64,000 nucleotides of DNA from an uncultured Acidobacteriota bacterium (GCA_902826515.1 CADEFD010000003.1:968-64967), one strand, 5' to 3'. Positions 20,345-55,891 are shown, counted from the first letter of the stretch. A program made the numbers and translations. The notes: generated by a model from the sequence alone, not told the origin.

Positions 20345-21142
20345 TTACCGGAGGAGCGACAGCACCTGCGAGCTCTGCTGGTTGGCCTGCGCGAGGGCGG
20401 CGATACCGCTCTGCGTCAGGATGTTGTAGCGCGCCAGGTTGGCCGACTCTTCGGCCACGTTGGCGTCGCGGATGCGGCTTTCGGCGGCCTTGGTGTTGAC
20501 CGCCTGATACTGCGCCAGGCCGGTCGCGTACTGGAGGCGGTTCTGCAGCGAACCGACGCTGCCGACCACGGTGCCGACCGTGCCGACGGCCGTCGTGATC
20601 GCGGTGACCGCGCTGGCGGCGCCGCCCGCGGTCGAGATGTTCAGCGCGGCGATGCCCAGCGTGGTGGTATCGGCCGCGCCGATGGTGCCGCCGACGGTGC
20701 CGGAGGCGCCGCTGCTCACGAAGACCGAGAAGCCCTGCGCGGTGCCGAGACCGGCCACCGTGACTTCACGGGCGATTTCCGAGACCACGTCGGTGAACTC
20801 GTTGTTCAGCGTGGTGCGGTTGCCGGTGAACCCGGCCGAGGCCGACTGCGACGCCAGCGTCGCGAGACGGTCGAGAAGCGTGCTCACGTTGTCGAGCGCG
20901 CCGTTCTTGATCTGCAGCGTGGAGAGTCCGTCGTTCGCGTTACGAATGCCCTGGTTGAGAACCGCCTGTTCCGACCGGTACGAGTTGGCCACCGCGAGGC
21001 CGGCCGCGTCGTCGCCCGCCTGGTTGATGCGGAAGCCGCTCGACAGCCGCGTGAGGGTGCGCTGCAGGCCGATGTTCGTCGTGTTGAGGTTCGCCTGCGC
21101 GTTCTGCGCCGACACGTTGCTGACAACTGAGAATGAAGCCAT
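20345..21142 (-). CDS. fliC: Flagellin (short, 265 aa)
   Basis: MASFSVVSNVSAQNAQANLNTTNIGLQRTLTRLSSGFRINQAGDDAAGLAVANS...IRDANVAEESANLARYNILTQSGIAALAQANQQSSQVLSLLR. GGAGGAG RBS. The ORF-track start at 21307 is an upstream extension. Confidence 0.95.
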   Translation of the reverse strand: MASFSVVSNVSAQNAQANLNTTNIGLQRTLTRLSSGFRINQAGDDAAGLAVANSYRSEQAVLNQGIRNANDGLSTLQIKNGALDNVSTLLDRLATLASQSASAGFTGNRTTLNNEFTDVVSEIAREVTVAGLGTAQGFSVFVSSGASGTVGGTIGAADTTTLGIAALNISTAGGAASAVTAITTAVGTVGTVVGSVGSLQNRLQYATGLAQYQAVNTKAAESRIRDANVAEESANLARYNILTQSGIAALAQANQQSSQVLSLLR

Positions 21143-21221: not shown

Positions 21222-21248
21222 TAATCGGAGGTCGCCCGCGGAGCTTTA
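21222..21248 (-). promoter_or_regulatory. Sigma-28-type promoter of fliC
   Basis: Minus strand reads TAAAGCTC-N11-TCCGATTA versus TAAAGTTT-N11-GCCGATAA. It lies ~80 nt upstream of the fliC ATG. Confidence 0.65.
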
Positions 21249-27319: not shown

Positions 27320-28035
27320 GTGCCCGCGCTGCCATCGTCGTTCAGGCCCGTATGGGCTCGTCCCGCCTGCCCGGCAAGTCGCTGGCGCCGATTGCCGGCC
27401 GGTCGCTGCTGGCGCACGTCGTCGAGCGGCTGGCCGATCAGCGGGAGCTCCCGGTCGTGCTCGCCACGACGACGCTCCTCGAAGACGACCTGCTCTGCGA
27501 CGAAGCCGACCGCCTCGGCATCGCCGTGCTGCGCGGCTCGGCCGACGACGTGCTCGGGCGCTATGCGTTCGCGGCGTCGCTGCTCGGCGTGCCGGCGATC
27601 ATCCGCGCCACCGCCGACAACCCGGCCGTGGACCTCGCCGCGGCCGTGCGCACGCTCGACATCCTGCAGCGGTCCGGCGCCGACTACGTCGTGGACTACG
27701 GCCTGCCCACCGGCGCGACCGTCGAGGCGATGAGCGTGCCGGCGCTCGTGCGCGCGGCGGCGCTCGCGACCGACGCCTACGACCGCGAACACGTGACGCC
27801 GTTCATCCGGCGCGACGGCCGCTCGCGGGCCGTGGACGCGCTGGCGCCCACAGAGCTGCGGCGGCCCGACCTCCGCTTCACCGTCGATACGCCCGAAGAC
27901 CTCGACTACATGCGCCGGGTCTACCTCGAGGCCGGGCCGGCCGAACGGCCGTGGCCGCTCGCCGCGCTCATCGCCGCGGCCGACCGCGTGCGCGAACGCG
28001 CCGAACTCGAACAGACGGGAGCAGATGCGCGGTGA
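27316..28035 (+). CDS. pseF: Cytidylyltransferase (PseF/SpsF-like CMP-nonulosonate synthetase candidate)
   Basis: AIVVQARMGSSRLPGKSLAPIAGRSLLAHVVERL...LRGSADDVLGRY is an acylneuraminate cytidylyltransferase-family N-terminus. Confidence 0.6.
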   Translation: MSARAAIVVQARMGSSRLPGKSLAPIAGRSLLAHVVERLADQRELPVVLATTTLLEDDLLCDEADRLGIAVLRGSADDVLGRYAFAASLLGVPAIIRATADNPAVDLAAAVRTLDILQRSGADYVVDYGLPTGATVEAMSVPALVRAAALATDAYDREHVTPFIRRDGRSRAVDALAPTELRRPDLRFTVDTPEDLDYMRRVYLEAGPAERPWPLAALIAAADRVRERAELEQTGADAR

Positions 28036-28862
28036 CGACGCCCCGACGTTTCTCCGACGCCGCGTTCCTGTTCAGCGTGCCGCTGACGGTGGCGCTCGTC
28101 GTCGGCGCGCAGTCGCTCGACGGCGGCCGGCTGGCGACGCTGCTGCAGCCGGCGGCGGCCCTCATCGTCTTCGGCGGCACGTTCGTGGCGGTGGTGTTCA
28201 GCTTCCCGCTGCAGCTCCTCGCCCGCACCGGCCGGGCGCTGGCGGCGGCGTTCGGACGGCGGCCCGAGTCGGACACGGCGCTGCTGGCGCGGATGGGGGA
28301 GTATGCGACGCGCGCCCGCACGCGCGGCAAGCTGTCGCTCGAGAACGAACTGGGGAAACACGACGATCCGTTCCTGCTGCGCGCGCTGTCGCTCCTCGTG
28401 GACGGCGTGCCGGCGGCCGACGTGCGCCACACCCTCAAGACCTTCAGCCAGGTGCGCGAAGAAGCCGATGCCGAATGTGCGCTCGTGCTCGAAGCCGCCG
28501 GCGGCTACGCCCCCACCCTCGGCATCCTCGGCGCGGTGCTCGGCCTCATCCAGGCCATGGATCACCTGACGACGCCGGCCAGCGTCGGCCCCGGCATCGC
28601 CGTGGCGTTCGTGGCCACGGTCTACGGCGTCGGCGCCGCCAACCTCGTGTTCCTGCCGCTGGCGACGCGGCTGCGCAGCCTCGGCCGCCAGGCCGCGCTC
28701 AGCCGTGAAGTCGTGATCGAAGGCGCCGTCGCCATCCAGCAGGGCATCCATCCCACGCTCGTCGACGGACATCTGCGCAGCCTGCTCATGGCCTGGCACG
28801 GCGCCCCGCACTACGCGGTGCCGACCGAGGCCACGACGCGGGCCCGTCTGGTGAAGTCATGA
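28032..28862 (+). CDS. motA: MotA/PomA-family stator protein (set 1, PomA/MotP-like)
   Basis: GGYAPTLGILGAVLGLIQAM...GPGIAVAFVATVYGVGAANLVFLPLATRL (MotA/TolQ/ExbB channel helices). GTG start in a GTGA overlap with the upstream stop. Confidence 0.85.
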   Translation: MTTPRRFSDAAFLFSVPLTVALVVGAQSLDGGRLATLLQPAAALIVFGGTFVAVVFSFPLQLLARTGRALAAAFGRRPESDTALLARMGEYATRARTRGKLSLENELGKHDDPFLLRALSLLVDGVPAADVRHTLKTFSQVREEADAECALVLEAAGGYAPTLGILGAVLGLIQAMDHLTTPASVGPGIAVAFVATVYGVGAANLVFLPLATRLRSLGRQAALSREVVIEGAVAIQQGIHPTLVDGHLRSLLMAWHGAPHYAVPTEATTRARLVKS

Positions 28863-29548
28863 ACATCCGGCTCTCCGCCACCCAGGTCTCGCGCGACCGC
28901 TGGCTCATCTCGTACGCGGACTTCATGACGCTGCTCTGCGCGTTTTTCATGACCGTCTACGCGGCCACCCTCGCCGAGACGCCGGCGGCCACGGCCGCCG
29001 CGCCCGTCGCCGCGGCCGCGCCGGCCGTCGAGACGGCGCCCGAGCCGCCGCCGGTCGATCCGTCAGTCGCGCTTCGCGAACAGGTGGAGCGGGCGCTGGC
29101 GCCGGAACTTGCCGCGGGATACCTGCAGCTCGTCGAGGATCCGCGCGGCCTCGTCATCGAAGTGCCCGAAGCCGGCGCGTTCGATGTGGGGCAGGCGGCG
29201 CTCGCGCCCGAGGCGCAGGCGATGCTCTCGCGCATCGCGACCATGCTCACGACGCTGCCGAACGCGGTGCGCATCGAAGGCCACTCCGACACGACGCCGA
29301 TCCGCACGCCGCAGTACGCGTCGAACTGGGATCTCTCGACCGCGCGCGCGACCAGCGTCGTCGAGTTCCTCGTGACCACGGCGGGCCTCGTGCCGTCGCG
29401 GCTGTCGGCCGCGGGCTACGCGGAGTTCAAGCCGCGCGCCTCGAACGACACGCCGGAGGGCCGGGCCCGCAACCGTCGCGTGGACCTCGTGCTGCTGAAC
29501 GACGCGACGGCACGCGCCGAGGAACCGGCAGGGAGCCTGCGGCCATGA
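28859..29548 (+). CDS. motB: MotB/PomB-family stator protein (set 1) with OmpA-like domain
   Basis: RWLISYADFMTLLCAFFM (conserved Asp in the TM helix). C-terminal OmpA motif (IEGHSDTTPIRT..NWDLSTARATSV...NRRVDLVLL). Confidence 0.9.
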   Translation: MNIRLSATQVSRDRWLISYADFMTLLCAFFMTVYAATLAETPAATAAAPVAAAAPAVETAPEPPPVDPSVALREQVERALAPELAAGYLQLVEDPRGLVIEVPEAGAFDVGQAALAPEAQAMLSRIATMLTTLPNAVRIEGHSDTTPIRTPQYASNWDLSTARATSVVEFLVTTAGLVPSRLSAAGYAEFKPRASNDTPEGRARNRRVDLVLLNDATARAEEPAGSLRP

Positions 29549-31829: not shown

Positions 31830-31942
31830 GCACGCCGCGATGTCGGCGCGGCGACGGGCGCCGCGCGGCCAAGGGTCGGCGGACCGACATCCACAGGGTG
31901 CGAATTGCACAGGATTGTCGCCCGTGACCACCGCTACCTGAA

Positions 31943-31958
31943 CGGCACACTCGTTGCT
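31943..31958 (+). promoter_or_regulatory. Candidate sigma-54 promoter upstream of the pyruvyltransferase-MTase gene
   Basis: CGGCACACTCGTTGCT versus TGGCAC-N5-TTGCW, with exact spacing. It sits in a ~220-nt gap after the GT4 gene. Confidence 0.45.
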
Positions 31959-32051
31959 CAGTTGACGGGCATGGTTCTCCCAACCGTCCGTCACGAAGTT
32001 CCGCCGACCGGCGCCGACGCCGGACACCAGCGGCGCACCGGCCCGGCCACG

Positions 32052-33629
32052 ATGCCGCTGGCCGTCGGTCTCTTCAACGACAGCGGCGATGACGCGCAGG
32101 TCGTGAGCCTCGCCGTCTCGCAGGCCCACCGCCGCATGCTCCAGCGGGCCGGCGCCCACGTGCGCCACGCCTACTACCGCAGCGACTGGCAGGAACTCGG
32201 CACCGGCACCCTCGACGAGGCCGTCGCCGCCGCCCTGGCCTCGGCGGAACTGCGCCGCGTGTTCGCCGATGTCGATGTCATCGTCGTCGCCGGTGACACC
32301 TTCGCGAGCCGCGGCCACCGCCACCTCCTCGCGATCCTCGGCGCCGCCCAGCACCTCGACCTCCCGACCTACCTCGTGAATGCGACCATCGGGCCGCTCA
32401 CCGAAGGCCGCGAGATCCTGCAGGGCCTGGCCGACTGCACGGTGCGCGACCTGGCGACGAGCCGGGTGCTCAAGGCGCTCGGGATCGGCCATCGCCGTGT
32501 GCCCGACGCCGTCTTCGGCGCGCCCTTCGCGGCCACCGCCCGCCGCGACTTCTCCGATCACCTCGTCGTGACCGACTGCCACCCGTCGCGCCGTATCGAG
32601 TTCACGGCCGACCTGGCCGTCGTGCGCGGCGCCTGGCCGGGCATGGTGGCGGACTACCCGCTCGATGCGCCCGGCAGCACGCACGACTGGGCCTCCGCGG
32701 TGGCCGATCTCGGCACCGCCTCGGCCATCCTCACGGGCGGCCGCGACGGCGCGGCGCTGGCGCTGCGCGCCGGGGTGCCGTTTGTCGCACTCGGCCTGGC
32801 CGGCGAGGCCAACGACTTCATCGAGACGCTCGACGGCTATCCGGCGGCCGCGGCCGACCCGACGCGGTCGCTCGACGCCCGCCTGGCGTCGGCGATCGAC
32901 GCGCGGACCTGGTTTGTCGAGGCGGCGGCGCGCTGCCAGACGCGCGGTCCCGCCGATGCGTTCTCGCGGCTGCGCCCGAGCATGGCGCTCACCGGCCGCG
33001 ACGACACGTGGAGTGGCGCCATCGACGGCGCCGTGGACGTGGTGCGCGGGCTGACGCCCGCCGGCGGCAGTGTGCTGCACGCCGGCGCCGGCCAGGGGCA
33101 GCTCGTCGAAGCGCTGGCCCGCATCGGCCTGCGCTCGTGGGGCACCGATGTGGCCCGCCGGCTCGACCGGCCCGACCGCAATCGCTACTCGAAGGCAACG
33201 CCGATGGCGCTGCCGTTTGCCGACCACGTCTTCTCGACGGTGGTGGTGTCGGCCGACTGGCTCGAACATCTCGAAGCCGCCGACCTCGATGCCGCCGTCG
33301 CCGAACTGGCGCGCGTCGGCCGCGACACCCTTGTCGTCGAAGTCTCGGGCCGCCCGGTGCGCGCCGAACGCGCCTTCGCCGAGCGCCTGAGCGACGAGTG
33401 GTGGCGCCGCCGCCTCGGCACGCTGGGGCTCACGCCGCACGAAGCCTCCGATACGCTCGTCACGCACGGCGCCGGGCCCACCGGCGGCACGCTGCTCGTC
33501 ATGTCGGCGCACGCCCAGCTCTGCCCGAGCTGCCGGCGCGTGCATGCGCCGGTCGATCACGTGGAGCCGGTGCACGCCGGCGTGCTCATGGCCGCCGCCG
33601 AGGCGCGGGTCCTGTCGCTTCGCCGCTGA
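32052..33629 (+). CDS. Polysaccharide pyruvyl-transferase-like domain fused to a class I SAM methyltransferase
   Basis: N-terminal VDVIVVAGDTFASRG..AQHLDLPTYLVNATIGPL...CTVRDLATSRVLKALGI...VPDAVF (PS_pyruv_trans pattern). C-terminal GGSVLHAGAGQGQLVEAL...LPFADHVFSTVVVSADWLEHL (MTase motifs I-III). Starts at 31905 or 31971 are alternatives. Confidence 0.55.
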   Translation: MPLAVGLFNDSGDDAQVVSLAVSQAHRRMLQRAGAHVRHAYYRSDWQELGTGTLDEAVAAALASAELRRVFADVDVIVVAGDTFASRGHRHLLAILGAAQHLDLPTYLVNATIGPLTEGREILQGLADCTVRDLATSRVLKALGIGHRRVPDAVFGAPFAATARRDFSDHLVVTDCHPSRRIEFTADLAVVRGAWPGMVADYPLDAPGSTHDWASAVADLGTASAILTGGRDGAALALRAGVPFVALGLAGEANDFIETLDGYPAAAADPTRSLDARLASAIDARTWFVEAAARCQTRGPADAFSRLRPSMALTGRDDTWSGAIDGAVDVVRGLTPAGGSVLHAGAGQGQLVEALARIGLRSWGTDVARRLDRPDRNRYSKATPMALPFADHVFSTVVVSADWLEHLEAADLDAAVAELARVGRDTLVVEVSGRPVRAERAFAERLSDEWWRRRLGTLGLTPHEASDTLVTHGAGPTGGTLLVMSAHAQLCPSCRRVHAPVDHVEPVHAGVLMAAAEARVLSLRR

Positions 33630-33637
33630 GGTCCGCC

Positions 33638-35551
33638 ATGTCCACCCCCGACCAGCTCTTCGACCTGCCGCGCCTGCGGCCGCGCGTCGGCGCGGCGCGC
33701 GACTCGCTCCGCCTCCTGCATGTGATCGTCGGCCGCGACCTGCATCCGGGGCCGCTCGCCGACGAGATCCACGCCGCCAGCCGCGGCGCCATCCGCGTCG
33801 AGTGTGTGGCCGGGCTCGGCCGCGCCCTCGATCACCTGCGGGCGCATCCGGCCGCGCTCGTGCTGCTGCAGGCCGACGATCTCGACGTCGGCCGCGTGGC
33901 CCTCGCGGAGCTGAAACTCGCGCAGCCGGCCCTGCCGGTGGTGCTGCTGACCGAAGCCGAAGACGACGAGGCCGCCGTGGCCGCCGTGCGGGCCGGCGCC
34001 GAAGACTGCCTGTGGCGCGGGGCCGCCAGCGGCGCCCGCATCGTGCGCGTCATGCTCTGCGCCCTCGAGCGCACGAGTCACGCCGCCACGCTGCGCACGC
34101 AGGCCGTGACCGACCCGCTCACCGGCCTCCCGAACCGCCACGCCCTCCAGAAGGCCATCGACCACGCGATCGCGATGGCCCGCCGGAAGGGTCGTGCCCT
34201 CGCCGTGCTCTTCGTGGACCTCGACGGCTTCAAGGACGTCAACGACGCGTGCGGCCACGAGACCGGCGATCGCGTCCTCCAGGAGATCGCGCGCCGCTTT
34301 GCCGGCCGCACCCGCGACATGGACACCGTGGCCCGCATCGGCGGCGACGAGTTCGTCGTCGTGATGGAGGACCTCGACGACGGCCGCTTCGCCGCGACCC
34401 TCGCCGCCAAGCTGCTCGGCGCCGCCGCCGAACCGCTGGTCGTGCAGGGGCGCGCGACCGCACTCACGGCGAGCGTCGGCATCAGCGTGTTCCCGGGCGA
34501 CGGCGATGACGCCGCGGCACTCATCCGCCACGCCGACACCGCGATGTATGCGGCCAAGGCGGCGGGGAAGAACCAGTACCGCTACTACCGCGCCCGCATG
34601 AACGAACACTCGCGGGCCCGCACCGCGCTCGACGCGGCGCTCGAGCGTGCCTTCGAGCAGGAGGAATTCGACCTGCACTACCAGCCGGTCTGGCAGGCCT
34701 CGACGAAGCGGATCTCGTCGTGCGAAGCGCTGCTGCGCTGGCGCCGGCCCGGCCACGGCGTGCTGCTGCCGGCGGCGTTCCTCGACACCGCGGACGAGGC
34801 CGGCCTGGCCGGACGGCTCGCCCAGTGGGTGCTGACGCGGGCCGCCGCGACCGCGCGGCGGATGCGCGAGGCCGGCTTCGACGTGCCGGTCTCGGTGAAC
34901 CTGTCACGTCGTCAGCTCCTCGACGGCGACATCGCGGCGTGCGTGCAGCGTCTGTTCGCCGACGGGCTCGACGACGCCGCACTCCAGATCGAGATCGCCG
35001 AATCGGTACTCGTGTCGGACGAGCCGCGGCTCCAGCAGGTGCTCGCGGAACTGGCGGCACTCGGCCTCGGCCTGGTCGTGGACGACTTCGGCAGCGGCGT
35101 CTCGTCGCTGCGCGCGCTGCGACGCGTGCGCCCCGCCAGCATCAAGATCGACGGCGCGCTCGCCCGCGAACTGCCCGAAGGGCAGGATACGGCGGCCCTC
35201 GTGAGCGCGGTCGTGGCGCTCGGCCGCACGCTCGGGGTGCACGTGGTCGCCGAAGGTGTCGAAACGGAGGCGCAGTCGCGCCAGCTGCTCGCGCTCGGCT
35301 GCGACGACCTGCAGGGCTTCTACTACGGGCACGCGCTGCCCGACGGCGAATGGATCGGCTATCTGCGCTGGGCGTGCACGGCGGTCGTCGGCACCGATGG
35401 CCGCACCCCGGCCGTGCCCGTCCTGCCCGGCGCGCGCCGCCGCCGTGGCGGCGTGACCCGTTTTCCCGGGAGCGCGGGTCTGCCGGGGATTCCCGGCGCT
35501 CCGCGCGTGTCGAAAGCCGGGCACGTGGTGTTCGGCCGCTTCAGGAGTTGA
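33638..35551 (+). CDS. Degenerate-receiver / GGDEF / EAL protein
   Basis: GGDEF intact (RDMD-TVARI-GGDEF, with an RxxD I-site). EAL motifs present: EALLRW, NLS, EIAE, DDFGSG, KID, EGVE, QG. The N-terminal REC-like fold lacks the DD pair and Lys (HVIVGRD, LVLLQADD). Confidence 0.9.
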   Translation: MSTPDQLFDLPRLRPRVGAARDSLRLLHVIVGRDLHPGPLADEIHAASRGAIRVECVAGLGRALDHLRAHPAALVLLQADDLDVGRVALAELKLAQPALPVVLLTEAEDDEAAVAAVRAGAEDCLWRGAASGARIVRVMLCALERTSHAATLRTQAVTDPLTGLPNRHALQKAIDHAIAMARRKGRALAVLFVDLDGFKDVNDACGHETGDRVLQEIARRFAGRTRDMDTVARIGGDEFVVVMEDLDDGRFAATLAAKLLGAAAEPLVVQGRATALTASVGISVFPGDGDDAAALIRHADTAMYAAKAAGKNQYRYYRARMNEHSRARTALDAALERAFEQEEFDLHYQPVWQASTKRISSCEALLRWRRPGHGVLLPAAFLDTADEAGLAGRLAQWVLTRAAATARRMREAGFDVPVSVNLSRRQLLDGDIAACVQRLFADGLDDAALQIEIAESVLVSDEPRLQQVLAELAALGLGLVVDDFGSGVSSLRALRRVRPASIKIDGALARELPEGQDTAALVSAVVALGRTLGVHVVAEGVETEAQSRQLLALGCDDLQGFYYGHALPDGEWIGYLRWACTAVVGTDGRTPAVPVLPGARRRRGGVTRFPGSAGLPGIPGAPRVSKAGHVVFGRFRS

Positions 35552-35578: not shown

Positions 35579-36715
35579 ATGCGGATCCTGCATCTCACGA
35601 CGTTCCTCCAGGGCGGCGCCGGCCGCATCATCGCCGCGCTGGCCGTGGCGCAGCGTCGCTCGGGCCATGACGTGACCGTCGTCGCCGACGATGGCGGCGA
35701 GGACGGGTACGGGTCCTACCCGGAGTATCTGGCGGCCCTCGCGACGGCCGGCGTCGGCTACGCGACGGTGCGGTCGACCTTCAAGCGGGAGCTGCCCCTC
35801 GCGATGCAGGCGGCGCAGCAGCTGCGCGCGATCGCCGGTCCGTCTCCGCCCGACATCGTCCACACGCACGCATCCATCCCCACGCTCGTGGCGCGGGTCG
35901 CGTTCGGGCCGGCGCGGGTCCGGCTCGTCCAGACGATGCACGGGTGGGGTGTTCGTAAGACGCCCGACCAGGTGACCACCGACCTGTCCCTGCTGGCCGC
36001 GGCCGATGCGGTCGTGACGCCGTCGGACGCGGCGCGACGGTTCCTGCACGCCCTCGGTCTCGTCCATCCGGCCATGCATGTCATTCCCTACGGGCTGGAT
36101 CCCGCCGCGTCAACGGCGCCGGTCGATGCGGCCGACGTCGCGCGGCTGCGCCAGGTGCGCGCCGGCGGCGCCCGGGTGGCCGTGTGCCTCGGCACGATCG
36201 GCGCGCGCAAGAATCAGGCGCTCCTCGTGGCGGCGCTGACGTCGCTGCCGGAATTCGCGGCGGTCTTCATCGGCGATGGCGAGGGTGACGCACTCGAGGC
36301 GATGGCGGCGGCCCAGGGGGTCGGGGCGCGGGTGCACGTGCTGGGCTATCGCAGTGATGCCAGCCGCTACCTGCCGTACGCCGATGTGCTCGTGCTGCCG
36401 TCCCGCAACGAAGGTCTGCCCATCGCGGTGCTCGAGGCGCTGCGCGCCGGGGTGCCGGTGGTGGCGAGCGCAATTCCCGAGATTGCCGAAGCGATCGAGG
36501 ACGGGCGCACGGGCTATCTCTGCACGCCCGACGATCCCCTGGCGCTGGCCGCGGCGCTGCGCCGCAGTGTGGTGCCCGAGGTGCGCGCCTCCATGGCGGC
36601 CGCGGCGCGTGCGACCTTTGCCGCCCGCTACGAGCTGACGTCGATGACCCGGGCCTACGATCGTGTCTACCGCGGTGAGTTCGGCCCCGAGCAGGAGCGC
36701 GTCGCCGCGCGATAG
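35579..36715 (+). CDS. GT4-family glycosyltransferase
   Basis: MRILHLTTFLQGGAGRIIAALAVAQRRSGHDVTVV. LVLPSRNEGLPIAVLEALRAGVPVVASAIPEIAEAIEDGRTGYL. Confidence 0.85.
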   Translation: MRILHLTTFLQGGAGRIIAALAVAQRRSGHDVTVVADDGGEDGYGSYPEYLAALATAGVGYATVRSTFKRELPLAMQAAQQLRAIAGPSPPDIVHTHASIPTLVARVAFGPARVRLVQTMHGWGVRKTPDQVTTDLSLLAAADAVVTPSDAARRFLHALGLVHPAMHVIPYGLDPAASTAPVDAADVARLRQVRAGGARVAVCLGTIGARKNQALLVAALTSLPEFAAVFIGDGEGDALEAMAAAQGVGARVHVLGYRSDASRYLPYADVLVLPSRNEGLPIAVLEALRAGVPVVASAIPEIAEAIEDGRTGYLCTPDDPLALAAALRRSVVPEVRASMAAAARATFAARYELTSMTRAYDRVYRGEFGPEQERVAAR

Positions 36716-42313: not shown

Positions 42314-42329
42314 AGCAACGGTTGTGCCA
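42314..42329 (-). promoter_or_regulatory. Candidate sigma-54 promoter for the MTase / GT-MTase / MTase / sulfotransferase operon
   Basis: Minus strand reads TGGCACAACCGTTGCT (15/16 to TGGCACG-N4-TTGCW). It lies ~40 nt upstream of ATG 42275, in the 163-nt gap after maf. Confidence 0.55.
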
Positions 42330-42438
42330 GCACTGCCGGATCGCCGACCCCGCAAGACGACGGTGTGAAACGTGCGGTGACGGCGGGCGCGGCATGTCGG
42401 CGTGCCGGCCGCGTCCGGAACACCGACACCAGGAGGTG

Positions 42439-44049
42439 TCAGGCCGGCTGGCCGGACGACAGCACCCGGCGGATCTCGTCCGCCGTCACGGCGCCGGCGG
42501 AGAAGTCCATCCACTGCGCCAGGGTCTCGCGGGCGCCGGGAGAGGTGGGCTGCGCGAGGAGCTCGCGACGCCGGGACGTAAGGCCGTCGTGGGGCCGCGC
42601 CTGCGCGCGGGCCGACCGCAGGATGTCGCGGACGTGGCCGCCGAGGGGCGCGTGCGGCCCGAGGACGTCGTGGAGCGTGGCGTGTTCGAGGTTCGCGCCG
42701 TGCAGGATGCCGGCGCCGGTGGTGTTCACGTACCGCCGTGAGCTGTCGGCACTGACCTGCTGGCACAGCCAGTCGCGAAAGGAGATGAGGTGCGGTGAGG
42801 TGAGGACCGGCCGGCCGTGCAGGTCCGGCACGCGCAGATCGGCGAGGCGTCCGAAGTAGTCGTCGACCAGCTGCTCCCACGTGCAGCCGTAGGTCGCCAT
42901 CGCCTCCCGCCACGTCGCGTCGTAGATGGTGTTGGCGCAGTACGGGCGTCGCACCGGATACGACAGGTCGAGGCCGGCGAACACGATCGGCGCGCAGCCG
43001 AGACGCACCGCAAGATCGAAGGCCGTCGTGACCACCGACCCCCACGCGCGCAGCGTGCCGCGGTCGAGCCCGGCGGCGCGCAGCCACGGCCAGGGCTCGT
43101 GGTCGCTGACCTTGAACACGAAGGTGCGGCCGGCGAAGCCGGTGAACGCCGAGGGGTGCAGGCTGCCTTCGGCGGCCAGGAAGATACCGTCCAGATCGTC
43201 GACGCCGGCGAGATGGCGCGCGTTCAGCTCGGCCGGATCGACACCGGCGACGAGGTGGGGCCGTACGCCACCGGCCAGCAGTGGCCGCAGCGTCGTGTCG
43301 GCGCCGATGACGACGGCACGATCCTGGAGCGCCGCCAGCGCCGGCAGCTGGTCGTCGAGCGAGGGTCCGGCACCGACGATGACCGCCGGGTGACCCGCCA
43401 GCAGCCCGTCCAGTGCGGCCGCATCCCCTTCGCGCGCGATGACCGGAAGATTGGCCAGCGTCTGCAGGAGGTACCGTCCAGCGAAGCGCCGGCGCGCGTC
43501 CGCATTCGCCCGGGCCTCGGCGACCAGGCGGCCGGCCACGGCCTCGGCGGCCTTCGCGTCCGCGGCGCGACAGGCGGCCAGGGCGCCGTTCACGATCAGG
43601 GTCGGCGGCGCGCTCACATCGACGAGGCGTCCGCAGTTCATCGCTCCGCCGTAGTCGGGACCCGTGAGCAGACACAGGCGGCCGTTCGTGATCCACGACG
43701 TCAGGTCGCGTCGCGCGAGCAGCAGCGCCGCGATGCCGGGGTCCGGTTCGAGCAGCACGAGGCGCGTGGACGCGCCCGATCGTTCGAGGTCGTCGATGAA
43801 CTCGCCGAGGGCCGGCCCGATGACGAAGAGCTGGCGGGGCCAGGTGGCGATGCGGGGGGCGTTGAGCGACTGCCACTCTCCCGTGGGGTGCCGCAGTTCC
43901 AGGCGCACCCCGTCCGCGCCATCTGCCACGGCCCGGGTGTGCGCCTCGTCGAGGCGTGCCAGCCCGGGGCGTTGTCCCTGCGCGCGTTCGAGCGCGGCAA
44001 GATTGGCGGCAAGGGTCGTCTCACTGAACACGCCAGATCCGGACTGCAC
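42439..44049 (-). CDS. maf: Maf-family (DUF115/MptE-like) motility accessory factor, putative flagellin nonulosonic-acid transferase
   Basis: AVIVGAGPSLDDQLPAL..AVVIGADTTLRPLL...GSVVTTAFDLAVRLGCAPIVFAGLDLSY is a typical DUF115 core. It is the C-terminal third of the artefactual 1523-aa ORF 42439-47010. The start is uncertain (GTG 44049 or 44031). Confidence 0.65.
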   Translation of the reverse strand: MQSGSGVFSETTLAANLAALERAQGQRPGLARLDEAHTRAVADGADGVRLELRHPTGEWQSLNAPRIATWPRQLFVIGPALGEFIDDLERSGASTRLVLLEPDPGIAALLLARRDLTSWITNGRLCLLTGPDYGGAMNCGRLVDVSAPPTLIVNGALAACRAADAKAAEAVAGRLVAEARANADARRRFAGRYLLQTLANLPVIAREGDAAALDGLLAGHPAVIVGAGPSLDDQLPALAALQDRAVVIGADTTLRPLLAGGVRPHLVAGVDPAELNARHLAGVDDLDGIFLAAEGSLHPSAFTGFAGRTFVFKVSDHEPWPWLRAAGLDRGTLRAWGSVVTTAFDLAVRLGCAPIVFAGLDLSYPVRRPYCANTIYDATWREAMATYGCTWEQLVDDYFGRLADLRVPDLHGRPVLTSPHLISFRDWLCQQVSADSSRRYVNTTGAGILHGANLEHATLHDVLGPHAPLGGHVRDILRSARAQARPHDGLTSRRRELLAQPTSPGARETLAQWMDFSAGAVTADEIRRVLSSGQPA

Positions 44050-44171
44050 GTTCCGTACCGGTGCGACGGCGCGGCGGACGCGTGGTGGCGACCCGACGTG
44101 GCACCGGCGCCGGCGTCGGCGCATCGACACCTGTGGACCCGCCCGGCCTGCAAAGTGCGGCGCGCCGGGGA

Positions 44172-44187
44172 GGGCACGGCATTTGCG
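44172..44187 (+). promoter_or_regulatory. Candidate sigma-54 promoter upstream of motA (set 2)
   Basis: GGGCACGGCATTTGCG. GGCACG-N4-TTGC matches the consensus core with exact spacing. It lies ~90 nt upstream of the ATG. Confidence 0.4.
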
Positions 44188-44207
44188 ACAGGCCCCGGGG
44201 AAGCGGG

Positions 44208-44234
44208 TCAAGGAATCCGGCAGCGCGCCGATTG
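44208..44234 (+). promoter_or_regulatory. Sigma-28-type promoter upstream of motA (set 2)
   Basis: TCAAGGAA-N11-GCCGATTG. The -10 is identical to the flgM and HK promoters. It lies 44 nt upstream of the ATG. Confidence 0.45.
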
Positions 44235-44277: not shown

Positions 44278-45150
44278 ATGTTCGTCATTATCGGCACGCT
44301 CATCGTCATCGGCTCGGTGCTTGGCGGCTACGTCATGCACCACGGCAAGATCGCGCTGCTCAACCAGCCGAACGAGTTCCTCATCATCTTCGGCGCCGCC
44401 GTCGGCCAGCTCCTCATCGGCACGCCGCTGCCGACGGTGATGAAGCTGCTCAAGCAGATGGGCGAGGTGATGAAGCCCGGGCTGGCCAAGAGCGACTACG
44501 CGGACCTGCTGGCGATGCTCTACCAGCTCTTCCGCCTGTCGCAGCAGACCGGCATCATGGCGCTCGAAGGCCACTTCGAGAACCCGAAGGACAGCTCGAT
44601 TCTCTCGAGGTATCCGAAGTTCCTGTCGCGCCACGAGTCGCTCGACTTCCTCTCCGATTCCATCAAGGTGATCATCGTCGGCGGCATGGCGCCGCACGAC
44701 CTCGACGCGCTGATGGATGAAGACCTCTACGTCCATCACCACGAGGCGAAGGCGCCGGCCGGCGCGCTGGCCAAGACCGCCGACGCGTTCCCCGGCCTCG
44801 GCATCGTCGCCGCCGTGCTCGGCGTCGTCATCACGATGCAGTCGATCGACGGCCCGCCGTCGGAAATCGGCGAGAAGGTCGGCGCCGCGCTCGTCGGCAC
44901 GTTCCTCGGCATTCTGCTCTCCTACGGCATCTTCGGGCCGCTCGCGACCATCATCGAGACCCGCGTGGACGACGAGGGCAACTACGAGAAGTGCATCAAG
45001 GCGGGCGTGCTCGCGACCTTCAAGGGGCTGCCGCCGGCGATTGCCATCGAGTTCGCGCGGCGCGTGCTGCCGCATCAGGTGCGGCCGAGCTTCGAAGAGA
45101 CGGAAAAGTTCTGCAAGGCCGCGGGCAAGCCCGAAGCGGCAGCGGCCTAA
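44278..45150 (+). CDS. motA: MotA stator protein (set 2, enterobacterial MotA-like)
   Basis: MFVIIGTLIVIGSVLGGYVMHHG...AFPGLGIVAAVLGVVITMQSI...ALVGTFLGILLSYGIFGPLATII. Internal ATG of ORF 42817-45150. Confidence 0.93.
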   Translation: MFVIIGTLIVIGSVLGGYVMHHGKIALLNQPNEFLIIFGAAVGQLLIGTPLPTVMKLLKQMGEVMKPGLAKSDYADLLAMLYQLFRLSQQTGIMALEGHFENPKDSSILSRYPKFLSRHESLDFLSDSIKVIIVGGMAPHDLDALMDEDLYVHHHEAKAPAGALAKTADAFPGLGIVAAVLGVVITMQSIDGPPSEIGEKVGAALVGTFLGILLSYGIFGPLATIIETRVDDEGNYEKCIKAGVLATFKGLPPAIAIEFARRVLPHQVRPSFEETEKFCKAAGKPEAAAA

Positions 45151-45153
45151 GTC

Positions 45154-46047
45154 ATGAAACCCACGCAGCCGGTCATCATCATCAAGAAGAACCGCGGCGG
45201 CCACGGCGGCCACCACGGCGGCGCCTGGAAGGTGGCCTACGCCGACTTCGTGACCGCCATGATGGCGTTCTTCCTCGTCATGTGGCTCGTCGGCGCCAGT
45301 CCCGACGTGAAGAAGTCGGTGGCCGGGTACTTCCGCGACCCGGGCGTGTTCGACTTCGAGAAATCCACCGGCATGATGGCCGGCGGCATGACCGGCATCG
45401 ACGAAGGCCGCGCGCCCGAGACGGTGCAGCAGCCCGATGCCGCGGCGCTCACCGTCGAACGCCAGAAGCTCGAAGAGTCGGCCTCGCGCATCAAGGACAG
45501 CCTGGCCGACGCCGGCGGCCTCGAGGAACTGCGCGACCAGATCGAGTTCTCGGTGACCGAGGAAGGTCTGCGCATCGAACTGCTCGAGAAGGACGCCTCG
45601 AGTTTCTTCGGCAGCGGCAGCGCCGCGCTGCGCGGCGAGAGCGTGCGCATCCTCGGCATCATCGGCCGCGAGCTGGGCCAGATGACCAACGACATCGTCG
45701 TCGAAGGGCACACCGACAGCCGGCCCTTCGGTGCCGGCCAGACCTACTCCAACTGGGAACTCTCGGCCGATCGCGCCAATGCCGCCCGGCGGGTGATGGA
45801 GGCCGTCGGCCTCAATCCCGGCCAGGTGCAGGGGGTGCGAGGGTTCGCCGCCACGCAGCTCCGCCTCGCCGAGGCGCCGATGGACCCGCGCAACCGGCGC
45901 GTGTCGATCGTGGTGCGCAGCCAGTCGCGCGCCCGCCTGGAAGACTCGCTGCGTCGCGGCACGGCGCCGGCCGCCGCCCCGCCGCCGCCCGAAACCACCA
46001 CGCCATCCGGGGTGTCCCCGGCGACCGCGCCGCCGCCGGCGCATTAA
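45154..46047 (+). CDS. motB: MotB stator protein (set 2) with OmpA-like domain
   Basis: GGAWKVAYADFVTAMMAFFLVMWLV (conserved Asp). VEGHTDSRPF...SNWELSADRANAARR...NRRVSIVV. Confidence 0.93.
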   Translation: MKPTQPVIIIKKNRGGHGGHHGGAWKVAYADFVTAMMAFFLVMWLVGASPDVKKSVAGYFRDPGVFDFEKSTGMMAGGMTGIDEGRAPETVQQPDAAALTVERQKLEESASRIKDSLADAGGLEELRDQIEFSVTEEGLRIELLEKDASSFFGSGSAALRGESVRILGIIGRELGQMTNDIVVEGHTDSRPFGAGQTYSNWELSADRANAARRVMEAVGLNPGQVQGVRGFAATQLRLAEAPMDPRNRRVSIVVRSQSRARLEDSLRRGTAPAAAPPPPETTTPSGVSPATAPPPAH

Positions 46048-46071
46048 AGCTTTGCCCCCGGAGGCCGATTG
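46045..46071 (+). promoter_or_regulatory. Sigma-28-type promoter overlapping the motB stop, upstream of the HK-DGC-PDE genes
   Basis: TAAAGCTT-N11-GCCGATTG versus TAAAGTTT-N11-GCCGATAA; this is the best match in the window. The TAA of motB forms part of the -35. It lies 80 nt upstream of ATG 46151. Confidence 0.6.
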
Positions 46072-46150
46072 GCCCACCGGGGAACAACCGCCGGCCATAC
46101 GGCCGGCAACGGCGGGCCTGCCCGCCGGTGCACGTTTCCGCGAGGTGCCG

Positions 46151-47716
46151 ATGTCAGCCGCGCAATCCGCCGCTCCCGTACCGTCCACGTCCGCTGCGCC
46201 GGGCGCGCCGTTCGCGGAGCCGGTGGCCGAACTGGTCGTGTCGCCGGATGGGCGCATTCTCGAATGTGGCGCCGCCGCCGCGCGCGTGCTCGGGCTGACC
46301 GACCCGCGCGAGGCGATGGGCGTCCACCTGAGCCTGTTCTGCCGCGATGCCGATCGCCTCGCCGAAGCCCTCGGCGCCGCCGCCGTGACCGGCCGACTCG
46401 AGCGCTGGGACGCGGATCTGGTGCGGCTCGACGGCAAGGCGCTCCCGGCCGTCGTCGATCTGGTGGCGTCCTTCGATGCGCCGCGCACGCTCACGTCGCT
46501 GCGGGTGGCGATCAAGCCCGTGACGGCCTGGCCCACGCCTGCGCCCGGCCCGGTGGCCGTGCCGGCGAAGCGTGACGAAGCGAGCCAGCTCTCGCACGAG
46601 CTGAACAACCTGCTGGCCATCATCAGCGGCCACGCCGAGTGCCTGATCACGCCCGGCGCCAGCGCGGCCGACGCCGGCGCCGTCGAGGCCATCCGGCGCG
46701 CCGTCGCCTCGGCCGCCCAGGTCTCGGCGCGCGTGCGCGGCCTCAGCCAGCGCCGCGCACAGGAAGCGCGGGCGGTCGACATCGACGCGCTGCTCGCCGC
46801 CGTGCAGGACGACCTGCGCCGCACCTTCGGACACCGTCTCGCCGTGGCCGTGCAGCCGGCGCCGCATCCGTGGACGGTGTCGATCGACCGCGCGGTCGTG
46901 CACCACGCGCTGGCGGCCCTTGCCGCCGAAGCCCTCGAGTCGATGCCGCACGGCGGCACCCTGACCTTCCGCACGATGAACGTCGAAGTAGGCACGCGCC
47001 GTCCGCACACCCCGGTCGGCGCCCGTCCCGGCCGCTACGTGCGCGTCGAAGTCAGCTACCTCACGAGCGACATGCCGGCGCCGCCCAACCAGCAGCGCCG
47101 CGATACCGACGACGCCGGCGTGGCGGCCATCGACGCCCTGCGTCGGGCCGGCGGCCGCGTGATGGTCGACACCGACGGTCACCGCGTGGCCAGTGTCGTG
47201 CTGCTGTTGCCGTCGGACGGGGTGACCGTGCTGCGTCCGCGCAGTGCCGAGACGCCGCGCCACTCGGGCCAGACCGTGGTGCTCGTCGAAGGCGACCCCA
47301 CCCATCGCCGGCTGCTGCAGGCGGTGCTGCGCGGGCAGGGCCACGACGTCGAAACCGTGAACACCGCCGAGGAGGCCGACCGCCTCGCGTCGCATCAGCC
47401 GGGCCTCGTGCTCGTGACCGACCGCCTGCCCGGCGCCTCGGCGACCGAGGCGGCTGCCTGGGTGGCGGCGCGCCCGTCGCTGCGCCTGCTCGGCACCTCC
47501 GATGACGTCGCGCGGGCGCTGGCGCTCGTGACCGACCCGCGCCAGGCGCTGGCGATCTCGCGGCCGCTCGCGGCCGGCCAGATCACCGACGCCGTGAAGG
47601 CCCTCTTCGACGGCGACGTCGCGCTCGACGCTGCCGATGCCGGCGCCGACGTGCTCGCACCGCTGTGGTTCAAGCGCGACGGCACGCAGCCGATTCACCC
47701 GCTGGAGGCGTCCTGA
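46151..47716 (+). CDS. PAS / HisKA / degenerate HATPase / receiver-like hybrid sensor kinase
   Basis: PAS (VVSPDGRILECGAAAARVLGL). H-box ASQLSHELNNLLAIISGHAECL. In the N-box position LAALAAEALESM lacks the usual Asn residues. C-terminal REC-like (VVLVEGD..LVLVTDRLPG..LLGTSD..ISRPL). Confidence 0.75.
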   Translation: MSAAQSAAPVPSTSAAPGAPFAEPVAELVVSPDGRILECGAAAARVLGLTDPREAMGVHLSLFCRDADRLAEALGAAAVTGRLERWDADLVRLDGKALPAVVDLVASFDAPRTLTSLRVAIKPVTAWPTPAPGPVAVPAKRDEASQLSHELNNLLAIISGHAECLITPGASAADAGAVEAIRRAVASAAQVSARVRGLSQRRAQEARAVDIDALLAAVQDDLRRTFGHRLAVAVQPAPHPWTVSIDRAVVHHALAALAAEALESMPHGGTLTFRTMNVEVGTRRPHTPVGARPGRYVRVEVSYLTSDMPAPPNQQRRDTDDAGVAAIDALRRAGGRVMVDTDGHRVASVVLLLPSDGVTVLRPRSAETPRHSGQTVVLVEGDPTHRRLLQAVLRGQGHDVETVNTAEEADRLASHQPGLVLVTDRLPGASATEAAAWVAARPSLRLLGTSDDVARALALVTDPRQALAISRPLAAGQITDAVKALFDGDVALDAADAGADVLAPLWFKRDGTQPIHPLEAS

Positions 47717-47752
47717 TACGACTGGCCCCGGCGGGCAGCGTGCGAAGGGTTC

Positions 47753-48829
47753 ATGGCGAATAACGCGGTCATCTCGCTCGACCTCAGGCGTCGCGGGCAC
47801 GAGAGCGACCATGCCATGGTCCTGCGCCTGCTCGACGAAGTGCTGGCCTGGGCCCGCGACTTCCTCGCCGCCGACGAAGAAGCCGGCTGGCAGCCGCTCG
47901 CGCAGCGCTTCGAGGCGTGCCGCACGGCCGTGGCCGCCGGCGCGCCGTCCACCGAAGTGGAAGCGCTCGCCAGCGCCTGTCTGGCCGAAGGACGCGAGCT
48001 CATCGCCCAGCTCCAGCAGCTGCGCACGCAGCGTGTCGAAGAGTCGTTCGCGGTGGTCGAGGCGCTGCGCGACGTGATGGCGACGATGGGTGCCGAGATG
48101 AGCACCATGCACACCAGCCTCACGCAGTCCACTGAACGGTTCGAGGCGATCGGCCAGTTGAACGACGCACGCCAGATGAAGGCGCGCCTGATGGCCGAAG
48201 TGCTCACGCTGAAGCAGGTCGCCGCCAAGCGGCGCAAGGCGTGGGAGGAAACCGCGCGCTCGCTCACGCAGAAGGTCGCCGCCCTCGAGAAGGACCTGTC
48301 GGCCGTGAAGGGCGAAGCTTCCACCGACTCGCTGACCGGCGTGGCCAACCGCCGCGGCTTCGACGAGACCCTCGAGCGCTGGCTCGGGCCGTCGCACCCG
48401 GGCTTCGTGCTCGCCGTGCTCGACATCGACGACTTCAAGGGCATCAACGACGCGCACGGCCACGCCGTGGGCGACGACGTGCTCCGCTACGTGGCGAAGT
48501 GCCTGATGCAGTCGTTCCGCAGCGACGACCTGGTGGCGCGCGTGGGCGGCGACGAGTTCGCCGTGCTGGCCGCCGGCCTCACCTCGCGCCAGGCGGAACA
48601 CCGGCTGCACGGCGTGCTCGCCCGCATCGCCAACGGCAAACCCGGCGAGGAGGGGCGTCCGCCCTGCGTGCCCACGATCAGCGTCGGCCTGTCCGAATGT
48701 GCCGCCGGCGACACCGCCGCCAGTCTCTACGAACGCGCGGACGACGCGCAGTACACCGCAAAACGGCAAGGAAAGAATCGTGTGATCGCCAAGGACGCCC
48801 GGCTCCTGCGCGACCTCGCGAGGCATTGA
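47753..48829 (+). CDS. GGDEF diguanylate cyclase with N-terminal coiled-coil sensor region
   Basis: DSLTGVANRRGF...AVLDIDDFKGINDAHGHAVGDDVL...RSDD-LVARV-GGDEF (I-site plus active site). Confidence 0.9.
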   Translation: MANNAVISLDLRRRGHESDHAMVLRLLDEVLAWARDFLAADEEAGWQPLAQRFEACRTAVAAGAPSTEVEALASACLAEGRELIAQLQQLRTQRVEESFAVVEALRDVMATMGAEMSTMHTSLTQSTERFEAIGQLNDARQMKARLMAEVLTLKQVAAKRRKAWEETARSLTQKVAALEKDLSAVKGEASTDSLTGVANRRGFDETLERWLGPSHPGFVLAVLDIDDFKGINDAHGHAVGDDVLRYVAKCLMQSFRSDDLVARVGGDEFAVLAAGLTSRQAEHRLHGVLARIANGKPGEEGRPPCVPTISVGLSECAAGDTAASLYERADDAQYTAKRQGKNRVIAKDARLLRDLARH

Positions 48830-48837
48830 GGCACGAC

Positions 48838-51925: not shown

Positions 51926-52193
51926 GTGCGCCTCCCGACAGGACACGGCTATCGCGTCTACCAAGCTAGCACGGCGATGTTGGAGGGACACCGGGAAATC
52001 ATAGTGTGCCACAGCTTGCCCCTGAGCTGGCGGGGGGACGCCTCGGGACGGCGCGGCGCCGCCCTCGAGCTGCCGCGGCAGCTCCCGTCGCCTCGCGCTC
52101 GGCGGGCGCCCGCCCAACGCGAGGCCGGTGGCCGGTTGGGGCAGAAACGGCGGGCTGGCCATCAATCTCGGCGCCGGAAGCCGCCGCGACAGC

Positions 52194-53441: not shown

Positions 53442-53442
53442 C

Positions 53443-55030: not shown

Positions 55031-55039
55031 GGCGGCCAG

Positions 55040-55873: not shown

Positions 55874-55891
55874 ACGAACCGGCACCGGACT

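Follow-up and report, generated by a model that had tools for sequence, protein, structure and literature searches.

We analyzed a 64,000-nucleotide stretch of DNA from an uncultured Acidobacteriota bacterium (GCA_902826515.1 CADEFD010000003.1:968-64967; hereafter the window), in which a plus-strand gene at 33638..35551 (ATG at 33638, stop codon at 35549-35551) encodes a 637-residue protein composed, in order, of a pseudo-receiver, a GGDEF domain with an RxxD inhibitory site (I-site), an EAL domain, and a family-specific C-terminal tail. This GGDEF-EAL protein adds a new member, at family level, to the receiver–GGDEF–EAL kind and stands in a lineage-specific genomic context. On balance, we lean toward reading it as a soluble, phosphorylation-independent enzyme of cyclic di-GMP (c-di-GMP) turnover that operates in a sigma-54-type branch of the flagellar and glycan-tailoring regulon. 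Genes were called by third-position G+C content, the window having 68-75% G+C over most of its length and 63-67% at 52-58 kb. At third codon positions the G+C fraction is 0.92 in the GGDEF-EAL open reading frame, and the minus-strand frames that overlap it are high-G+C shadows. The protein reached the cut-off of none of the named NCBIfam equivalogs (DibA, DosP, PleD, DgcR, PvrR, and others); the best of them, DibA, scored 372 bits against a cut-off of 980, and the others also fell far below theirs. We take the protein to be soluble because its only hydrophobic peak (residues 519-538) falls within the EAL barrel.

Pseudo-receiver, catalytic halves and tail

The Pfam Response_reg profile (PF00072) matches residues 53-125 only, with a sub-threshold score of 24.3 bits (cut-off 30.2). 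To model the fold, we ran AlphaFold2 on the full-length protein and on its first 160 residues, each with orthologue alignments. The models place a (beta-alpha)5 domain at residues 24-131 (33707..34030, plus strand), with beta1 to alpha5 laid out over residues 24-157, a predicted local distance difference test score (pLDDT) of 84-97 across models, and a value of 86.5 for the model of residues 1-160. Comparison of this domain with the PDB by Foldseek gave 212 matches at E<=0.001; each of the top 50 is a receiver or CheY-like domain, and among them are TadZ (the best), NtrX, RssB, DgcR, WspR, and CheY. When the domain is aligned with CheY, the phospho-acceptor Asp57 corresponds to Gln78, Thr87 to Thr105, Tyr106 to Cys124, and Lys109 to Arg127, and the positions of the acidic pair are taken by Gly32 and Arg33; the segments concerned read HVIVGRD (28-34), LVLLQADD (74-81), and EDCLWRG (122-128). 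In an alignment of 50 orthologues, Gln78 is found at the acceptor position in 48/49, Gly32 is invariant, and the position of the conserved Lys holds Leu, Arg, or Ala.

Judged by fold and residue mapping, the N-terminal domain is a true CheY-fold pseudo-receiver, and it is predicted to be non-phosphorylatable because Gln78 replaces the acceptor Asp and both the acidic pair and the conserved Lys are absent. An initial annotation of the window had described a degenerate receiver without the acidic pair and the conserved Lys, which the CheY alignment confirms. The phosphorylation independence that it proposed is likewise upheld, the domain having a real receiver fold from which acceptor Asp, acidic pair, and Lys are all gone; the loss of the acceptor Asp itself is a point that goes beyond the annotation.

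A long alpha5 linker helix (residues 132-157; 34031..34108, plus strand) joins the receiver to the GGDEF domain. The C-terminal half of this helix (residues 141-155) is the most conserved segment of the protein, with a mean identity of 92% as compared with 82% for the GGDEF domain, 81% for the helix that follows the EAL domain, 67% for the EAL domain, and 62% for the pseudo-receiver. Profile matches to PleD and DgcR run from residues 91-98 through the GGDEF domain.

The GGDEF diguanylate-cyclase domain (residues 156-313; 34103..34576, plus strand; Pfam E=1e-46) passed both PF00990 (159 bits, cut-off 23.8) and TIGR00254 (151 bits, cut-off 37.4), and the EAL phosphodiesterase domain (residues 333-565; 34634..35332, plus strand; Pfam E=6e-63) passed PF00563 (212.8 bits, cut-off 31.3). 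Within the GGDEF domain, the RxxD I-site RDMD (226-229) is found five residues ahead of GGDEF (235-239), DLDGFKDVND occupies residues 194-203, and the metal and substrate residues D194, N202, D211, K307, and K311 are present, corresponding to D327, N335, D344, K442, and R446 of PleD. This residue list, as well as the loop 6 motif DFG(T/A)GYSS of EAL domains, follows PMC12943098. For the EAL domain we took RocR as the reference (E175, R179, N233, E265, E268, D295, D296, K316, E352, and Q372), and the canonical metal and catalytic residues are all present as E363, R367, N421, E452, E455, D482, D483, K503, E539, and Q559. These are carried by EALLR (363-367), N421, EIAE (452-455), DDFGSGVSS (482-490), KID (503-505), EGVE (539-542), and QG (559-560). 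Loop 6 reads DFGSGVSS (483-490), with Ser in place of Thr/Ala and Val in place of Tyr. All of the catalytic motifs that the initial annotation had quoted (RDMD, GGDEF, EAL, EIAE, DDFGSG, KID, EGVE, and QG) sit at the expected places.

Among the orthologues, the GGDEF active-site and I-site residues that we scored are invariant in 49/49, with the exception of K311, which is Lys in 45/50 and Arg in 3. In the EAL domain, by contrast, Asp483 has become Asn in 10/50 orthologues and Glu539 is lost in 4/50, and the Thr position of the ExTE motif holds Ala, Gly, or Ser. A sister lineage of receiver-less relatives, described below, has the GGDEF and RxxD residues intact in all three of its members, whereas its EAL domains carry N421R, D482A, K503R, and E539D and the EAL motif itself has turned into EAR, EAQ, or DAC. 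Because the GGDEF and I-site residues are invariant while the EAL domain erodes and is dead in the sister lineage, the diguanylate-cyclase half is, on these substitution patterns, the evolutionarily conserved activity, and the EAL half appears dispensable in relatives. The EAL domain is intact in the window protein, which may also hydrolyze c-di-GMP. The bifunctional enzyme of the initial annotation thus stands as far as the canonical residues of both domains are concerned; bifunctional activity is a possibility, and the GGDEF domain is constrained much more than the EAL domain.

The same data bear on the most serious alternative, which we regard as unlikely: that the protein is mainly a phosphodiesterase which, in the manner of PdeH (YhjH), holds c-di-GMP low in swimming cells, with the GGDEF domain serving as a GTP- or c-di-GMP-sensing module. 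GGDEF-EAL hybrids often act as phosphodiesterases, and here the whole canonical EAL set is present (ExLxR, Asn421, Glu452/455, Asp482/483, Lys503, Glu539, Gln559, and YQP). Furthermore, the closest named NCBIfam models are those of phosphodiesterases (DibA, PRK10060, and DosP, all far below their cut-offs), and the gene lies in the flagellar regulon by position and promoter type. The pattern of conservation, however, is the opposite of what a phosphodiesterase would predict: the EAL domain is less well conserved than GGDEF (67% versus 82%), its catalytic residues are lost in 14/50 orthologues, and it is degenerate in the receiver-less relatives, whereas the GGDEF and I-site residues never vary.

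The C-terminal tail (residues 566-637; 35333..35548, plus strand) consists of a conserved helix and a conserved GRFRS terminus, with a variable linker rich in Arg and Pro between them. The helix follows the pattern EW(L/I)xYLRWACTAVVGTDG and has an almost invariant sequence (YLRWACTAVVGTDG); AlphaFold2 predicts a helix at residues 569-582 and models the rest of the tail with low confidence. When a profile of the tail was searched against 1.84 billion representative proteins, only 4 matches were returned, all from the same family, and we therefore rejected the tail as a shared targeting motif. The tail is missing from the receiver-less relatives.

Promoter elements and conserved gene order

The gene directly upstream, PyrMT (31971..33629, plus strand), encodes a 552-residue protein with a pyruvyltransferase-like N-terminal part and an S-adenosylmethionine (SAM)-methyltransferase C-terminal part. 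Pfam assigns it Methyltransf_11/25 and a sub-threshold PS_pyruv_trans match (23.5 bits, cut-off 25.3). We placed its start at ATG 31971 on the basis of the orthologue N-termini (MVLPT...); the longest open reading frame would start at TTG 31905, and the spacer to the preceding glycosyltransferase gene, GT4a, is 141 nt with the corrected start versus 75 nt from the longest frame. Between the PyrMT stop codon (33627-33629) and the GGDEF-EAL ATG there is an 8-nt gap that contains a Shine-Dalgarno-like GAGG motif. On the other side, 27 nt separate the GGDEF-EAL stop codon from the ATG at 35579 of a second glycosyltransferase gene, GT4b (35579..36715, plus strand; Glyco_trans_1_4, 9e-31; Glyco_transf_4, 4e-22), the 3' end of which overlaps a convergent gene by 49 nt. 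Both gaps agree with those first reported for the flanking pyruvyltransferase-methyltransferase and GT4 genes.

A sigma-54-type -24/-12 element (GGCACACTCGTTGC; 31944..31957, plus strand) is located 27 nt ahead of the PyrMT start codon. The sequence cGGCACACTCGTTGCt at 31943-31958 matches TGGCAC-N5-TTGCW, with GG at -24 and GC at -12, and it is intergenic and oriented with the gene. Exact GGCAC-N5-TTGC matches number 3 in the 64 kb, against 0.81 expected, and all are intergenic and correctly oriented: one ahead of PyrMT (31944-31957, plus strand), one ahead of a minus-strand tailoring operon (42315-42328, minus strand), and one ahead of motA2, the motA gene of a second stator pair (44173-44186, plus strand). 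An exact match precedes PyrMT in 14 related loci, one of which (L005) keeps all three elements, and the distance from the element to the PyrMT start is 26-28 nt in the five loci with an annotated PyrMT start. No sigma-70-like promoter or intrinsic terminator was found at the junctions of the GGDEF-EAL gene. Sigma-28-like promoters gave only two matches in the window, ahead of fliC and of a set of kinase, GGDEF2, and HD-GYP genes described below, and none for GGDEF-EAL.

Two GTCGGC-NN-GCCGAC-like palindromes (31842-31855 and 31875-31888, plus strand) lie 56-102 nt ahead of the -24 element. Similar palindromes at 42396-42409 and 44115-44128 precede the other two sigma-54-like promoters, such that palindromes are found about 45-100 nt upstream of each of the three. 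The pair ahead of PyrMT is kept at the sequence level in 8 related loci, and its core shows no covariation. A terminator hairpin between GT4a and PyrMT was also considered and was rejected, since the region folds no better than shuffled sequence (z = -0.64) and shows no covariation. With no excess of RNA folding, and with sequence conserved in the absence of covariation, we read the inverted repeat as a protein-binding palindrome. It looks like an upstream activator site and is a candidate for recognition by an enhancer-binding protein; support for this assignment is only moderate, because the relaxed pattern is common in GC-rich DNA.

Protein searches with the enzyme returned about 50 clusters with 57-100% identity over the full length, followed by a sharp drop to generic matches at ~40%. 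An orthologue is present in only six species representatives out of 185,579 genomes, and the orthologues with a named source come from metagenome-assembled genomes (MAGs) of Vicinamibacterales or Acidobacteriota. The PyrMT family comprises about 59 clusters, and those with a named source are again all from Vicinamibacterales or Acidobacteriota. PyrMT is followed by GGDEF-EAL in every related locus in which this could be checked: in 10/10 loci reached via the enzyme, in 4/4 reached independently via PyrMT (those with downstream DNA), and in 3/3 loci of a deeper lineage (L091-L093), for a total of 17/17. In the ten loci reached via the enzyme, the block HAD–NeuB–ATP-grasp–CMP-transferase–MotA–MotB–(PseB)–GT4a–PyrMT–GGDEF-EAL is preserved as far as the sampled DNA extends. 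The genes 3' of GGDEF-EAL vary, with GT4b in L005 as in the window and with Maf directly, or other genes, elsewhere. The gap between PyrMT and GGDEF-EAL is 2-8 nt in the window and in the four receiver-bearing loci with called coordinates.

The deeper lineage supplies the receiver-less relatives. In L091-L093, PyrMT is 45-48% identical to that of the window, the island is the same, and a GGDEF-EAL gene again follows PyrMT; the encoded proteins have 451-474 residues, lack both receiver and tail, and find their best matches in the main family. Here the gap from PyrMT is 125-240 nt, and the GGDEF-EAL genes carry a -24/-12 element of their own. The palindrome also stands ahead of the GGDEF-EAL promoters of L091 (11660-11680) and L093 (about 11680-11700), the two loci in which the upstream region was read. 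Three more distant islands (L094-L096), reached via the ATP-grasp gene at 67-69% identity, keep the order fliC–Pse–MotAB–PseB and lack both PyrMT and GGDEF-EAL. Because the two genes are adjacent in related islands and both missing from more distant ones, the PyrMT and GGDEF-EAL pair is, by this comparison of loci, an insertion specific to this lineage, placed at the island's variable end and retained once gained. The initial annotation had raised the absence of the gene from orthologous islands as a check on its proposal: the gene is present in 17/17 related loci and absent only from the more distant Vicinamibacterales islands.

Together, these features indicate that PyrMT, GGDEF-EAL, and GT4b probably form one sigma-54-type transcription unit, which ends where GT4b overlaps the convergent gene, and that translational coupling of PyrMT and GGDEF-EAL is probable. 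A co-operonic arrangement, as first proposed, is consistent with the shared strand, the lack of signals at the junctions, and the position conserved in 17/17 loci, with the amendment that the operon is probably a three-gene unit of its own and not simply a part of the long upstream operon. Its description as a glycosylation operon is apt in that glycan-tailoring genes lie here in a flagellin glycosylation island, and incomplete in that the larger island also carries stator genes.

Proposed function and alternatives

From the domain content, residues, fold, gene order, and conservation, together with the promoter-like elements and their own conservation, we infer co-transcription, a dimer mechanism, a net enzymatic direction, and targets as follows. 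GGDEF-EAL would most likely be co-transcribed with PyrMT and GT4b from the -24/-12 element, with the palindromic activator site upstream. The strongly conserved alpha4-beta5-alpha5 face of the pseudo-receiver and the tightly conserved alpha5 linker would pair two GGDEF domains without phosphorylation, a pairing that we model on the activated receivers of PleD, WspR, and DgcR. Cyclase output would depend mainly on the amount of protein, with product inhibition at the invariant RxxD I-site setting its upper limit. The resulting c-di-GMP signal may report or limit expression in the late flagellar, stator, or glycan-tailoring set, possibly by feedback on a FleQ/FlrA-type enhancer-binding protein or on the motor. 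FleQ is a sigma-54 activator on which c-di-GMP acts (PMC10723142), and flagellar genes are under sigma-54 control in many bacteria (PMC3930126). Direct control of glycosylation chemistry by c-di-GMP seems improbable.

Several observations weigh against this reading. At the level of the enzyme, intact GGDEF motifs are sometimes inactive (PMC12943098), the presence of every canonical EAL residue leaves room for net phosphodiesterase activity, and both loop 6 (DFGSGVSS) and the ExTE motif (EIAE) are slightly off consensus. At the level of transcription, the promoter is a consensus match, and the 64-kb window contains no rpoN and no gene for an enhancer-binding protein; the 27-nt spacing to the ATG, taken at face value, implies a leaderless or near-leaderless mRNA, and read-through from the upstream 10-kb operon is possible. 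A search of the window for c-di-GMP receptors turned up neither a riboswitch nor a PilZ domain, the latter having been looked for in Pfam scans of about 70 window proteins. Finally, the constant adjacency to PyrMT may stem from a single acquisition and not from selection, and all of the sequences come from uncultured MAGs or metagenomes.

Adjacency to PyrMT is also the starting point of an improbable alternative, in which the enzyme, PyrMT, and the transferases form a dedicated module and local c-di-GMP allosterically gates pyruvylation, methylation, or sugar addition on the flagellin glycan. Elsewhere, c-di-GMP directly activates several glycosyltransferases (BcsA, HfsJ). In our loci the adjacency holds in 17/17 with tight gaps while the downstream genes are reshuffled, and PyrMT and GGDEF-EAL are jointly absent from the more distant islands. 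This co-occurrence may, however, trace to a single insertion event, and the receiver-less lineage, with its own promoter and its gap of 125-240 nt, argues that tight coupling to PyrMT is not required. Moreover, neither PyrMT, the GT4 proteins, and Maf nor the other window proteins showed a PilZ, I-site-like, or other known domain for binding c-di-GMP, and literature searches returned no pertinent precedent of a flagellin glycosylation island that carries a GGDEF gene. We are equally doubtful of a wider version, in which PyrMT and GGDEF-EAL would form a co-inherited module of two genes whose local c-di-GMP either controls a tailoring step of the flagellin nonulosonic-acid glycan or closes a feedback loop on the sigma-54 activator of the tailoring operons. 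The coupling of c-di-GMP to filament modification put forward in the initial annotation was thus not sustained: it amounts to adjacency, to which the strict PyrMT linkage lends some support, and both the promoter of the sister lineage and the lack of a binding domain in the tailoring enzymes count against it.

A role mainly as a scaffold or c-di-GMP receptor without catalysis, similar to FimX or LapD, is quite improbable for the protein; in such a role, its pseudo-receiver or its tail would hold it at the flagellar pole or motor. In favor of this, the pseudo-receiver is structurally closest to the CheY-like domain of TadZ, an atypical receiver that acts in localization; the tail, conserved within the family and specific to it, has no obvious enzymatic role; and the invariant I-site could serve for c-di-GMP binding. 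FimX and LapD, however, have degenerate catalytic motifs, and the invariance of the GGDEF active site here argues for catalysis. We find it very improbable that the gene is a passenger, one of the very numerous GGDEF-EAL genes that landed in a variable island end without any flagellar tie, for although it is absent from distant, otherwise collinear islands, lies at the boundary of the conserved and variable island parts, and shares the window with three other c-di-GMP genes, its position next to PyrMT is kept across lineages in which the identity of PyrMT falls to 45% and downstream genes are replaced, and the same promoter-plus-palindrome module stands ahead in both lineages.

The flagellar island and comparison with known systems

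By gene content, the window, which comes from a soil acidobacterium, is a Vicinamibacterales (Acidobacteriota) flagellar cluster joined to a nonulosonic-acid/Maf flagellin glycosylation island that includes motAB; the predicted island has Pse/Leg-type biosynthesis genes and a Maf-type transferase near the flagellin gene. The genes flhB, flhA, flhF, fliA, fliM, fliN, rod genes, flgA/H/I, flgM, flgK/L, fliW, and csrA lie at 1-17 kb, and fliS, fliD, and fliC at 18.4-21.1 kb on the minus strand, with fliC at 20345-21142. A sigma-28-type promoter (TAAAGCTCCGCGGGCGACCTCCGAT; 21224-21248, minus strand) is found upstream of this flagellin gene. With a sigma-28 promoter, fliA, flgM, and the fliW–csrA pair all in the window, the late flagellar circuitry looks conventional.

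The upstream plus-strand run comprises PseC-, PseG-, HAD-, NeuB/PseI-, ATP-grasp-, CMP-transferase-, MotA-, MotB-, PseB-, and GT4-like genes and continues with PyrMT, GGDEF-EAL, and the second GT4 gene. The PseC, PseG, PseI/NeuB, PseB, and CMP-transferase assignments are family-level matches, all under the equivalog cut-offs. The motA/motB stator pair (28032..29548, plus strand; identified by Pfam) is embedded in this nonulosonic-acid biosynthesis operon between the CMP-sugar transferase and PseB-like genes, 4 kb upstream of GGDEF-EAL. The same placement of motAB was seen in 16/16 related Vicinamibacterales islands that cover the position, including the three without GGDEF-EAL (L094-L096). The minus strand has a convergent operon with genes of the methyltransferase, GT4, and sulfotransferase-like types; the island also includes a Maf-type (PF01973) gene for a putative flagellin nonulosonic-acid transferase (42439..44211, minus strand; MptE-like, E=1.7e-32, with a weak NCBIfam PseD match), these coordinates being those of the longest open reading frame, with the true start probably further in. 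As for the flagellin glycosyltransferases that were initially said to neighbor the GGDEF-EAL gene, the downstream gene is a clear GT4, its role toward flagellin comes from context only, and Maf is 7 kb away on the other strand.

Two of the other c-di-GMP genes follow a second motAB pair (44278-46047, plus strand). Behind this pair come a sigma-28-like promoter, TAAAG-N15-CCGAT (46045-46069), and genes for a PAS-HisKA kinase (46145-47716, plus strand), a coiled-coil GGDEF protein whose RSDD and GGDEF motifs are intact (GGDEF2; 47753-48829, plus strand), and a receiver–HD-GYP phosphodiesterase (48826-49875, plus strand). The motAB2–kinase–GGDEF2–HD-GYP segment (44278-49875) forms a c-di-GMP module that is complete and apparently belongs to the late flagellar regulon. 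In L095, an island without GGDEF-EAL, an HD-GYP-type (HD_5) gene (19188-19871) lies directly ahead of the second motAB, and different c-di-GMP enzymes therefore seem to have been recruited near stators across Vicinamibacterales lineages. The remaining c-di-GMP gene of the window encodes a PAS–GGDEF–EAL protein (56921-58747, minus strand) with a degenerate GGDEF domain (GGDEC, with an insertion) and an EAL domain that looks intact and also has EIAE; a stand-alone receiver gene (58775-59167, minus strand) lies upstream of it. A stretch of lower G+C content (52000-56820; 63-67% versus about 72%) adjoins a tRNA gene (56748-56820, minus strand) and has weak integrase-like (54260-55000) and TIR-like (55040-55546) matches among open reading frames that are otherwise unannotatable; the stretch may be a small integrated element. 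When the whole window was scanned with Rfam, one tRNA was the only match, by which a c-di-GMP riboswitch or other RNA element was rejected.

Among proteins of solved structure, the best GGDEF-EAL relative is MorA, a Pseudomonas motility regulator (PDB 4RNH/4RNF), with 4RNH matching residues 156-574 at E=7e-99. MorA has been reported to be bifunctional in vitro and has been linked to flagellar development. Like the window protein, it has both signature motifs intact; unlike it, MorA is a large membrane protein with PAS sensors, has no pseudo-receiver or tail, lies outside any flagellar/glycosylation island, and carries ELTE and DFGTGYSS where the window protein has EIAE and DFGSGVSS. PleD, WspR, and DgcR have, like the window protein, a receiver, a long linker (alpha5 or coiled-coil), and a GGDEF domain that bears an RxxD I-site, and they match the window protein in sequence and fold from receiver alpha4 through GGDEF. 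They are, however, switched on by phosphorylation of the canonical Asp and have no EAL domain, whereas the window protein has Gln at that position and an intact EAL, and its NCBIfam scores stay below the cut-offs for PleD (141 versus 474) and DgcR (101 versus 500).

FimX and TadZ/CpaE use non-phosphorylatable CheY-like domains in localization or assembly. FimX resembles the window protein in having a receiver and then GGDEF and EAL among other domains; it differs in its degenerate catalytic motifs and receptor role, both catalytic domains of the window protein looking intact. In E. coli and Salmonella, the c-di-GMP enzyme PdeH (YhjH) is transcribed within the flagellar gene hierarchy, which is the general logic that we propose for the window gene. 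In contrast to the conserved cyclase half and sigma-54-type promoter found here, PdeH is EAL-only, sigma-28-dependent, and outside glycosylation islands. DgcB is comparable in that this diguanylate cyclase has a functional tie to the flagellar motor, and one gene that bears on its function, flmA, is a flagellin-modification gene. In Caulobacter crescentus, DgcB is associated with the stator (MotAB) and is needed for signaling in late flagellar mutants, including an flmA mutant described as disrupting flagellin secretion (PMC7885107). Its domain architecture is different and no genomic linkage was reported (PMC7885107), whereas stator genes lie 4 kb upstream of the GGDEF-EAL gene in the window.

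GGDEF-EAL proteins, and c-di-GMP enzymes in flagellar regulons, are well known, and the protein itself is unsurprising. What is mildly useful is its context, namely a lineage-specific c-di-GMP gene that is strictly linked to one glycan-tailoring gene in a stator-bearing island. The enzyme family offers a natural series, with the EAL domain intact, eroding, or dead and the GGDEF domain invariant, for asking which half of a hybrid matters. For the Vicinamibacterales, a poorly studied and largely uncultured order of Acidobacteriota, the readable sigma-54 promoter/palindrome module provides an entry point to flagellar regulation and c-di-GMP signaling. Gating of flagellin glycan tailoring by c-di-GMP would, if true, be new biology, and c-di-GMP would then be the first second messenger to set the flagellin glycoform.

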